The notes under the pieces are model-generated. The model searched no databases. It was given only the letters and a program-made list of their open reading frames with translations, and was not told the origin of the DNA. Shown piece by piece: positions 47 to 4,126 of a DNA stretch of 4,222 nt. Position 1 is the first letter of the stretch, and the number at the start of each line of letters is the position of its first letter. The position numbers and the translations under genes were made by a program. Origin of the DNA: Enterobacteria phage FrMerlot; the sequence record PP430144.1; one strand, written 5' to 3'.

Positions 47-53
47 AAGAGGA
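47..53 (+). promoter_or_regulatory. Shine-Dalgarno-like AAGAGGA upstream of the A2 start
   Basis: Purine-rich AAGAGGA ends 3 nt before the ATG at 57-59; the GAGG core lies 4-7 nt upstream. Confidence 0.5.
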
Positions 54-56
54 CAT

Positions 57-1319
57 ATGCCTAAATTACCACGTGGTCTACGTTTCGGAGCCGATAATGA
101 AATTCTTAATGACTTTCAAGAGCTCTGGTTTCCAGATCTCTTTATCGAATCTTCCGACACGCATCCGTGGTACACACTGAAAGGTCGTGTGTTGAACGCC
201 CATCTTGACGATCGCCTACCTAATGTAGGTGGCCGCCAGGTTAGACGTACTCCGCATCGTGCTACCGTTCCGATTGCCTCTACAGGCCTTCGTCCGGTAA
301 CAACCGTTCAGTATGATCCTACAGCACTATCGTTCTTGTTGAACGCTCGTGTTGATTGGGATTTCGGTAATGGCGATAGCGCGAACCTGGTCATTAATGA
401 CTTTTTGTTTCGCACTTTTGCACCTAAGGACTTCGATTTCTCGAATTCCCTAGTTCCTCGTTATAATCGGGCCTTCTCCGCTTTTAATGCCAAATATGGT
501 ACTATGATCGGCGAAGGGCTCGAGACTATAAAATATCTCGGGCTGTTACTGCGCAGACTGCGTGAGGGTTACCGCGCTGTTAAGCGTGGCGATTTACGTG
601 CTCTTCGCAGGGTTATCCAGTCTTACCATAATGGTAAATGGAAACCGGCTACTGCTGGTAATCTCTGGCTTGAATTCCGCTATGGTCTTATGCCTCTCTT
701 CTATGACATCAAAGACGTCATGTTAGATTGGCAGAAACGCCACGACAGGATTCAACGCCTCCTTCGGTTTTCAGTTGGTCACGGTGAGGACTATGTTGTC
801 GAATTTGACAACCTATATCCCGCCATCGCCTACTTTAAACTTAAAGGTGAGATTACACTCGAACGCCGTCATCGTCATGGTATAACCTACGCTAACCGCG
901 AAGGATATGCTGTTTTCGATAACGGTTCCCTTCGGCCTGTGTCCGATTGGAAGGAACTTGCCACTGCATTCATCAATCCGCATGAAGTTGCGTGGGAGTT
1001 AACTCCCTACAGCTTCGTTGTTGATTGGTTTTTGAATGTCGGTGACATACTTGCTCAGCAAGGTCAACTATATCATAATATCGATATCGTAGACGGTTTT
1101 GACAGACGTGACATTCGTCTCAAATCTTTCACCATAAGTGGTGAACGAAATGGGCGACCTGTTAACGTTTCTGCTGACCTGTCTGCTGTCGATACATTTT
1201 ATAGTCGATTACATACGAGCAAGCTTCCGTTCGCTACACTTGATCTCGATACTACCTTCAGTTCGTATAAACACGTTCTTGATAGTATCTTTCTATTAAC
1301 CCAACGCATCAAGCGTTGA
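57..1319 (+). CDS. A2: Maturation protein A2 (virion attachment protein; in Q-beta also the lysis effector that inhibits MurA)
   Basis: 420-aa ORF with ATG start and TGA stop at 1317-1319, first gene after a 56-nt leader. The translation (MPKLPRGLRFGADNEILNDFQELWFPDLF...LLTQRIKR) is recognisably the Q-beta A2 protein with scattered substitutions, judged from memory rather than by alignment. Confidence 0.95.
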   Translation: MPKLPRGLRFGADNEILNDFQELWFPDLFIESSDTHPWYTLKGRVLNAHLDDRLPNVGGRQVRRTPHRATVPIASTGLRPVTTVQYDPTALSFLLNARVDWDFGNGDSANLVINDFLFRTFAPKDFDFSNSLVPRYNRAFSAFNAKYGTMIGEGLETIKYLGLLLRRLREGYRAVKRGDLRALRRVIQSYHNGKWKPATAGNLWLEFRYGLMPLFYDIKDVMLDWQKRHDRIQRLLRFSVGHGEDYVVEFDNLYPAIAYFKLKGEITLERRHRHGITYANREGYAVFDNGSLRPVSDWKELATAFINPHEVAWELTPYSFVVDWFLNVGDILAQQGQLYHNIDIVDGFDRRDIRLKSFTISGERNGRPVNVSADLSAVDTFYSRLHTSKLPFATLDLDTTFSSYKHVLDSIFLLTQRIKR

Positions 1320-1339: not shown

Positions 1340-1741
1340 ATGGCAAAATTAGAGACTGTTACTTTAAGTAACATCGGGAAAGATGGAAAACAAACTCTGG
1401 TCCTCAACCCGCGTGGGGTAAATCCCACTAACGGTGTTGCCGCGCTTTCACAAGCGGGTGCAGTTCCTGCGCTGGAGAAGCGTGTTACCGTTTCGGTATC
1501 TCAGCCTTCTCGTAATCGTAAGAACTACAAGGTCCAGGTTAAAATCCAGAACCCGACCGCTTGTACTGCAAACGGTTCTTGTGACCCATCCGTTACTCGC
1601 CAGGCGTATGCTGACGTGACCTTTTCGTTCACGCAGTATAGTACCGATGAGGAACGAGCTTTTGTTCGTACGGAGCTTATCGCTCTGCTCGCTAGTCCTC
1701 TGTTGATCGATGCTATCGATCAACTGAATCCAGCGTATTGA
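1340..1741 (+). CDS. cp: Major coat (capsid) protein
   Basis: ATG at 1340-1342 to TGA at 1739-1741, 133 codons. The translation MAKLETVTLSNIGKDGKQTLVLNPRGVNPTNGVA...IDAIDQLNPAY is a Q-beta-type coat protein. The ORF-track start at 1316 is a TTG that overlaps the A2 stop and is not used here. Confidence 0.95.
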   Translation: MAKLETVTLSNIGKDGKQTLVLNPRGVNPTNGVAALSQAGAVPALEKRVTVSVSQPSRNRKNYKVQVKIQNPTACTANGSCDPSVTRQAYADVTFSFTQYSTDEERAFVRTELIALLASPLLIDAIDQLNPAY

Positions 1742-2338: not shown

Positions 2339-2343
2339 TAACT

Positions 2344-2348
2344 AAGGA
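2344..2348 (+). promoter_or_regulatory. Shine-Dalgarno (AAGGA) for the replicase gene
   Basis: AAGGA lies 8 nt upstream of the ATG at 2357, in the 18-nt gap between the A1 stop and the replicase start. Confidence 0.55.
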
Positions 2349-2352
2349 TGAA

Positions 2353-2372
2353 ATGCATGTCTAAGACAGCAT
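2353..2372 (+). promoter_or_regulatory. Translational operator hairpin (coat-protein binding site) over the replicase initiation codon
   Basis: AUGCAUGUCUAAGACAGCAU folds as an 8-bp stem (2353-2356 and 2358-2361 paired with 2365-2372), a bulged A at 2357 and a 3-nt UAA loop at 2362-2364. The replicase AUG (2357-2359) sits inside the stem. This is the Q-beta-type operator architecture. Confidence 0.8.
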
Positions 2373-4126
2373 CTTCGCATAACTCTCTTAGCGCACAATT
2401 GCGCCGAGCCGCGAACACAAGAATTGAGGTCGAAGGTAACCTCGCACTTTCCATTGCCAACGACTTACTATTGGCTTATGGTCAATCGCCATTTAGCTCT
2501 GAGGCTGAGTGTATTTCATTCAGCCCGAGATTCGACGGGACCCCGGATGACTTTAGGATAAGTTATCTTAAAGCCGAGATCATGTCGAAGTATGACGATT
2601 TCAGCCTAGGTATTAATACCGAAGCTGCTGCCTGGGAAAAGTTCCTAGCAGCAGAGGCTGAATGTGCTTTAACGAACGCTCGTCTCTATAGGCCTGACTA
2701 CAGTGAGGATTTCAATTTCTCACTGGGCGAGTCATGTATTCACATGGCCCGCAGAAAAATAGTCAAGTTAATAGGAGACGCTCCGTCCGTTGAGGGTATG
2801 TTGCGTCACTGCCGTTTCTCTGGTGGTGCCACAACAACGAATAACCGTTCGCACGGTCATCCGTCCTTCAAGTTTGCGCTTCCACAAGCGTGTACGCCTC
2901 GGGCTTTGAAGTATGTTTTAGCTCTTAGAGCTTCTACACACTTCGATATCAGAATTTCTGATATTAGCCCTTTTAATAAAGCAGTTACTGTACCTAAGAA
3001 CAGTAAGACCGATCGCTGTATTGCTATCGAACCTGGTTGGAATATGTTTTTTCAACTAGGCATCGGTGGTATCTTACGTGATCGGTTGCGGTGCTGGGGT
3101 GTCGATCTGAATGATCAGACGATAAATCAGCGTCGCGCTCACGAAGGCTCCGTTACTAATAACTTAGCAACGGTTGATCTCTCAGCGGCAAGCGATTCTA
3201 TATCTCTTGCTCTCTGTGAGCTCTTATTGCCCCCAGGCTGGTTTGAGGTTCTTATGGATCTCAGATCACCTAAAGGGCGGTTGCCTGACGGTAGTGTTGT
3301 TACCTATGAGAAAATATCCTCTATGGGTAACGGATACACATTCGAGCTTGAGTCGCTTATCTTTGCTTCTCTTGCTCGTTCCGTTTGTGAGATACTGAAC
3401 TTAGACTCGTCTGAGGTCACTGTTTACGGAGACGATATTATTTTACCGTCCTGTGCAGTACCTGCCCTTCAGGAAGTTTTTAAGTATGTTGGTTTTACGA
3501 CCAATACTAAAAAGACTTTTTTTGAGGGGCCGTTCAGAGAGTCGTGCGGTAAGCACTACTATTCTGGCGTAGATGTTACTCCCTTTTACATACGTCACCG
3601 TATAGTGACTCCTGCCGATTTAATACTGGTTTTGAATAACCTATATCGGTGGGCCACGATTGATGGCGTATGGGATCCTAGGGCCCATTCCGTGTACCTC
3701 AAGTATCGTAAGTTGTTGCCTAAACAGCTGCAACGTAATACTATACCTGATGGTTACGGTGATGGAGCCCTCGTCGGATCGGTCCTGATCAATCCTTTCG
3801 CGAAAAACCGCGGGTGGATCCGGTACGTACCGGTGATCATAGACCATACAAGGGACCGAGAGCGTGTTGAATCGGGGTCGTATCTTTACGACCTCTTTTC
3901 GCGTTGCTTTTCGGAAAGTAACGATGGGTTGCCTCTAAGGGGTCCGTCGAGTTGCGATTCTGTAGATCTATTTGCTATCGATCAACTTATCTGCAGGAGT
4001 AATCCTACAAAGATAAGCAGATCTACTGGTAAATTCGATATACAGTATATCGCGTGCAGTAGCCGTGTTCTGGCACCCTACGGGGTCTTCCAGGGCACGA
4101 AGGTTACATCTCTACACGAGGTGTAA
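2357..4126 (+). CDS. rep: RNA-dependent RNA polymerase (replicase beta subunit)
   Basis: ATG at 2357 (MSKTASSHNSL...) to TAA at 4124-4126, 589 aa. The catalytic YGDD motif is encoded at 3425-3436 (tac gga gac gat) in frame. The translation is recognisably Q-beta replicase. An in-frame ATG three codons upstream (2348) overlaps the SD and is less likely to be the start. Confidence 0.93.
   Translation: MSKTASSHNSLSAQLRRAANTRIEVEGNLALSIANDLLLAYGQSPFSSEAECISFSPRFDGTPDDFRISYLKAEIMSKYDDFSLGINTEAAAWEKFLAAEAECALTNARLYRPDYSEDFNFSLGESCIHMARRKIVKLIGDAPSVEGMLRHCRFSGGATTTNNRSHGHPSFKFALPQACTPRALKYVLALRASTHFDIRISDISPFNKAVTVPKNSKTDRCIAIEPGWNMFFQLGIGGILRDRLRCWGVDLNDQTINQRRAHEGSVTNNLATVDLSAASDSISLALCELLLPPGWFEVLMDLRSPKGRLPDGSVVTYEKISSMGNGYTFELESLIFASLARSVCEILNLDSSEVTVYGDDIILPSCAVPALQEVFKYVGFTTNTKKTFFEGPFRESCGKHYYSGVDVTPFYIRHRIVTPADLILVLNNLYRWATIDGVWDPRAHSVYLKYRKLLPKQLQRNTIPDGYGDGALVGSVLINPFAKNRGWIRYVPVIIDHTRDRERVESGSYLYDLFSRCFSESNDGLPLRGPSSCDSVDLFAIDQLICRSNPTKISRSTGKFDIQYIACSSRVLAPYGVFQGTKVTSLHEV

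Follow-up and report, generated by a model that had tools for sequence, protein, structure and literature searches.

The A2 gene of Enterobacteria phage FrMerlot raises the question of how this phage lyses its host. The encoded protein may itself be the lysis effector, acting on MurA as in Qbeta, or the genome may hold a separate lysis gene. The window, that is, the whole stretch of DNA analyzed here (4,222 nt), is a complete or nearly complete Qbeta-like (Qubevirus) genome. According to the list of open reading frames (ORFs), A2, coat, the A1 read-through and replicase follow one another on a single RNA of about 4.2 kb (+ strand), at the gene offsets annotated for FrBurgundy, FrHibiscus and Qbeta:

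49..53, + strand: Shine-Dalgarno-like GAGGA 5' of A2, in the same context in laboratory Qbeta
57..1319, + strand: A2 maturation/lysis protein gene, ATG at 57 and TGA at 1317-1319, 420 codons uninterrupted
1340..1741, + strand: coat protein gene, with the leaky UGA stop at 1739-1741; product an exact match to WZB35616.1
1742..2338, + strand: A1 read-through extension, about 200 codons between the UGA and TAG at 2336-2338, frame open throughout
2339..2356, + strand: spacer of exactly 18 nt separating the A1 stop from the replicase start, TAACTAAGGATGAAATGC, including the replicase Shine-Dalgarno AGGA
2357..4126, + strand: replicase beta-subunit gene; product an exact match to WZB35617.1

The A2 protein is identical to WZB35614.1, which is deposited under the name 'maturation-lysis protein A2 [Enterobacteria phage FrMerlot]', and there is no protein-level difference from the FrMerlot record PP430144.1 for A2, coat or replicase. 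This record has the sister records PP430142, PP430143 and PP430145. In a megablast search of 50,697 phage records, FrHibiscus and FrBurgundy gave the best nucleotide identity (97.0%); Qbeta isolates were 92-96% identical to the FrMerlot genome, and M11 and MX1 about 75%. As far as a sequence can reveal them, all defining features of a Qubevirus and of a Qbeta A2 are found in FrMerlot. The 3' end of the genome, …CCTCTCTCCTCCCA, is complete. At the 5' end, positions 1-15 read TCCCCCCTTAGGGGG, whereas complete Qbeta-clade genomes begin GGGG(G)ACCCCCCTTAGGGGG; FrMerlot thus starts without the G run and with T, not A, at base 1, and FrBurgundy begins alike. The 5' terminus of FrMerlot is probably incomplete or mis-called in the deposit.

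The region between coat and replicase was described in the sequence-only reading as being occupied by the A1 extension and an 18-nt spacer, and the coordinates bear this out, with TAG at 2336-2338 and the replicase start at 2357. A1 comprises 332 aa in FrMerlot, as in FrHibiscus and FrBurgundy, versus 329 in laboratory Qbeta. The difference comes from three codons (1783-1785 and 1796-1801) added in the Pro/Gly-rich linker that follows the leaky UGA. The length of this linker varies between isolates: FrHibiscus and FrBurgundy are like FrMerlot, and GIII_C, HL4-9, FrSangria, TW18 and BZ1 each differ. A second in-frame ATG, 9 nt 5' of the replicase start (2348-2356), directly adjoins the AGGA Shine-Dalgarno and gives a mechanical ORF of 592 aa versus 589. 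The accepted start at 2357 lies within the hairpin of the coat-protein operator (2353-2372, ATGCATGTCTAAGACAGCAT); in FrMerlot this hairpin is identical to the Qbeta operator given in PMC12724129. Positions 3586-3675, also in the replicase gene, hold a stem-loop that is apparently sensed by the HEPN defense protein ApeA, and plaques of FrMerlot are smaller on ApeA-expressing cells (preprint 10.64898/2026.03.20.713152).

A2 of FrMerlot is a member of the Pfam family Phage_mat-A (PF03863, E=1.5e-135), and its residues 1-420 align to residues 1-420 of the solved Qbeta A2 in 5VLZ, 5VM7 and 5MNT (phmmer E=1.3e-283). The MurA-A2 complex 5VM7 is a pseudo-atomic model of moderate resolution. As the reference for substitutions, we used laboratory Qbeta AB971354, whose A2 has the PDB sequence. 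The sequence-only reading had noted several substitutions relative to Qbeta and had proposed an alignment of the two proteins. This alignment runs end to end with zero indels and 403 of 420 residues identical (96.0%), so that the several substitutions come to 17 in 420 positions. Six are N-terminal (V69A, S76T, A89T, E125D, T137N and Q138R), and the others lie beyond residue 180 (R219K, N227K, K231R, V257I, S277T, K361S, S374D, L380T, N389K, F404Y and V418I). By segment, there are 3 in residues 30-120, 3 in residues 121-180 and 11 in residues 181-420; residues 1-29 are invariant across the Qbeta clade. All 17 are conservative, with a BLOSUM62 score of at least -1. Among 10 Qbeta-clade A2 proteins, Q138R, V257I, S277T and K361S are private to FrMerlot, and N137 is common only to FrMerlot and FrSangria. 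At the nucleotide level, the A2 genes of FrMerlot and laboratory Qbeta show 80 synonymous and 21 non-synonymous differences (dN/dS 0.065), and no region is relaxed. The maturation and pilus-binding role of A2 alone could account for all of this purifying selection.

Two segments of the A2 gene correspond to regions to which a function in lysis has been assigned in Qbeta:

57..596, + strand: A2 codons 1-180, the reported minimal lytic fragment; 174 of 180 residues identical to laboratory Qbeta, 6 substitutions
144..416, + strand: A2 codons 30-120, the reported MurA-contact segment; 88 of 91 residues identical to laboratory Qbeta

In PMC12856241, a 2026 paper on A2 which cites Cui et al. 2017, residues 30-120 of Qbeta A2 are described as an exposed beta-region that makes most of the MurA contacts, and residues 1-180 as the shortest lytic N-terminal fragment. 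Within the contact region as reported there, only V69A, S76T and A89T distinguish FrMerlot from laboratory Qbeta. Other cultured isolates also carry each of these three, and FrHibiscus and FrBurgundy have the full set. The C terminus of A2 matters for lysis as well. Truncation at R417 or beyond reduces or abolishes lysis by free A2, Q416P abolishes lysis and T415I partly reduces it, and R417E and R417L are tolerated; deletion of V418, K419 and R420 leaves lysis unaffected, and at position 418 itself V418S and V418E are tolerated but V418K abolishes lysis (PMC12856241). FrMerlot A2 ends in ...LTQRIKR, with T415, Q416 and R417 intact, and its I418 (V418I) is found in every field isolate compared.

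Across the genus, residues 30-120, the segment reported to face MurA and the pilus, are the most divergent segment of A2. Their identity is 97% within the Qbeta clade, 49-53% for M11/MX1 and 26-32% for SP/FI, with values of 48-76% for other A2 segments. Because this segment is so divergent there, MurA inhibition should not be assumed in distant Qubevirus species.

FrMerlot has been plaque-purified and titred on the F+ E. coli strains MG1655 F' and W1485 (two papers) and therefore lyses its host. Plaque formation shows lysis, yet neither its effector nor its target. The prediction of the sequence-only reading that A2 is the lysis effector agrees with what we found, namely a near-identical orthologue of Qbeta A2 and no dedicated lysis cistron. 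Qbeta A2 is the only protein for which experiments have demonstrated lysis by Qbeta through inhibition of MurA. We consider it highly likely that FrMerlot lyses its host by A2, most likely through MurA as in Qbeta. In the proposed course of events, A2 would accumulate late in infection, and its exposed N-terminal beta-region would bind host MurA in the closed, UDP-GlcNAc-bound (substrate-bound) state. The first committed step of peptidoglycan (murein) synthesis would stop upon this block of MurA, and growing cells would then rupture at the next division. For Qbeta, binding of the A2 beta-region to closed, UDP-GlcNAc-bound MurA and the resulting block of murein synthesis are described in the review PMC10610835. 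Binding and inhibition of MurA by FrMerlot A2 are very probably retained, because residues 30-120 are so nearly identical, the variants in this segment are shared with plaque-forming isolates, FrMerlot itself forms plaques and there is no conserved alternative ORF for lysis.

The last of these points comes from a search of the + strand, in which all alternative-frame ORFs of at least 25 aa were listed. We know of no translation of the minus strand in these phages, and minus-strand ORFs were for this reason left out as lysis candidates. There were 15 such + strand ORFs, versus 16.9+-2.6 after shuffling of codons within each gene, and 4 with a membrane-like 19-residue stretch, versus 5.1+-1.8; both counts are thus at or below chance. 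No + strand alternative-frame ORF of at least 25 aa crosses the A1/replicase junction (2300-2400). None of the 15 is intact in all relatives compared, and none is preceded by a Shine-Dalgarno sequence. Searched against Pfam, the alternative-frame ORFs gave no match and, against PHROG, one non-significant match (E=0.56). The earlier claim that the genome has no dedicated lysis gene holds in this set, in that no ORF among the 15 is supported as one. The four membrane-like ORFs and, separately, the counterpart of a cryptic lysis frame described in Qbeta are as follows:

562-726, + strand: membrane-like ORF, interrupted in FrSangria
1138-1299, + strand: membrane-like ORF, start codon missing in every relative
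1920-2174, + strand: membrane-like ORF of 84 aa with an ATG start, within the A1 read-through domain; maximum KD19 2.67
3660-3788, + strand: membrane-like ORF, stop lost in FrHibiscus, FrBurgundy and GIII_C, giving a different C-terminus by read-through
2430..2561, + strand: counterpart of the cryptic +1 lysis ORF, 43 codons and a stop following the GAGGUYG site

If MurA inhibition were weakened or lost, lysis could be brought about by a small membrane protein embedded in another gene at 562-726, 1138-1299, 1920-2174 or 3660-3788. Single-gene lysis genes of this kind are common in other single-stranded RNA phages (PMC7693330), and the membrane-like stretches of the four ORFs reach maximum KD values of 1.9-2.7. 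We nevertheless regard this reading as extremely improbable. Membrane-like ORFs are no more frequent than codon shuffling predicts, and each candidate is disrupted, startless or stop-less in at least one close relative; the ORF at 1920-2174, for example, is truncated in TW18, M11 and MX1, has lost its start in HL4-9 and is consistent with chance in the codon shuffles. The candidates also lack a Shine-Dalgarno sequence and a credible family match, and the A2 determinants of lysis reported for Qbeta are conserved. A different second product has been proposed for Qbeta itself. PMC12856241 attributes to Nishihara et al. 2004 a frameshift at GAGGUUG near the replicase start, which yields a 67-aa product that lyses via a non-A2 route, and PMC12856241 invokes this product to explain the release of particles without A2 function. 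The same source describes a Qbeta mutant, A2-V418K, which is infectious but has a defect in cytosolic lysis, so that a degree of A2-independent release in Qbeta is conceivable. With A2 as the main effector, the ORF at 2430-2561 might in FrMerlot add to lysis or back it up via rare frameshifts or an internal start of translation. This frame is uninterrupted in FrMerlot and shares its stop with laboratory Qbeta, it has an in-frame TTG at 2424, and it is open in FrHibiscus, FrBurgundy and HL4-9 as well. However, five of the nine Qbeta-clade relatives compared, and MX1 too, lack the open frame: GIII_C, TW18 and FrSangria, the last a well-characterized plaque former, carry a TAG right at the site of the shift, and the frame stops after 12 codons in BZ1 and BR12 and after 16 in MX1. 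A frame that is lost so freely, being broken in over half of the close relatives, does not look like one that is maintained as a gene. In FrMerlot, moreover, the site reads GAGGUCG, so that the proposed UUG restart is replaced by UCG, a Shine-Dalgarno sequence was not found before 2424, the peptide is not hydrophobic (maximum KD19 0.48) and no family match was found in Pfam or PHROG. A contribution of this frame to lysis therefore appears very unlikely.

A further reading leaves A2 and MurA in place and concerns the timing of lysis. MurA inhibition would be kept but quantitatively altered, with E125D and T137N/Q138R shifting the amount or the affinity of A2. All three changes fall within the reported lytic fragment 1-180. 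Residue 125 is reported to be one of the 'por' suppressor sites, and por mutations raise A2 synthesis. A single change in A2, U830C (residue 256), lengthens the latent period (PMC10248866). Against such retuning stand the conservative nature of all A2 changes and the frequency of D125 in field isolates, where it is found in FrHibiscus, FrBurgundy, GIII_C and BR12. We consider altered timing unlikely, if less so than a second lysis product; it would fit with lysis by A2 as the main explanation.

Lysis by A2, as predicted for FrMerlot, is of an already known kind, in a genome that is deposited and in which A2 is already annotated as maturation-lysis protein. Qbeta A2 is the textbook 'protein antibiotic', and the finding is of little importance beyond correct annotation. 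It does provide a list of natural A2 substitutions with which a phage can still form plaques, of use in A2 engineering and in mapping of the MurA and pilus interfaces, as well as comparative data indicating that the cryptic +1 lysis frame known from the literature is not kept across Qbeta-like isolates. There is a slim chance of a greater significance: either the +1 frame open in FrMerlot, FrHibiscus, FrBurgundy, HL4-9 and laboratory Qbeta provides a real low-level second lysis function, or N137/R138 and S361, together with D125, retune A2 synthesis or affinity for MurA. On either reading, natural Qbeta-like phages would differ in lysis timing.

Among known systems, MS2-type phages carry their lysis gene where FrMerlot has the A1 read-through extension. 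The MS2 L-type and Sgl genes share with A2 the outcome, lysis of the host by a single product without a muralytic enzyme; their characteristic feature, a small conserved ORF at the coat-replicase junction or elsewhere, was not found in FrMerlot. From the cryptic +1 ORF of Qbeta (Nishihara et al. 2004, as cited in PMC12856241), FrMerlot keeps the 43-codon frame and its stop but differs at the shift/restart site, where Qbeta has UUG. Klebsiella phage Cute (OP321095, PMC12724129), described as 'plaque-invisible', has the same gene layout as FrMerlot, shifted by 11 nt; of the two qPCR primers published for Cute, one has a mismatch to FrMerlot, at a position where FrMerlot and all Qbeta-clade genomes have the same base. 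The closest counterpart is laboratory Qbeta A2 (UniProt Q8LTE2; PDB 5VLZ, 5VM7 and 5MNT), which also has 420 aa, is encoded at the same genome position and has in common with FrMerlot A2 both the Phage_mat-A family and the C-terminus LTQRxKR.
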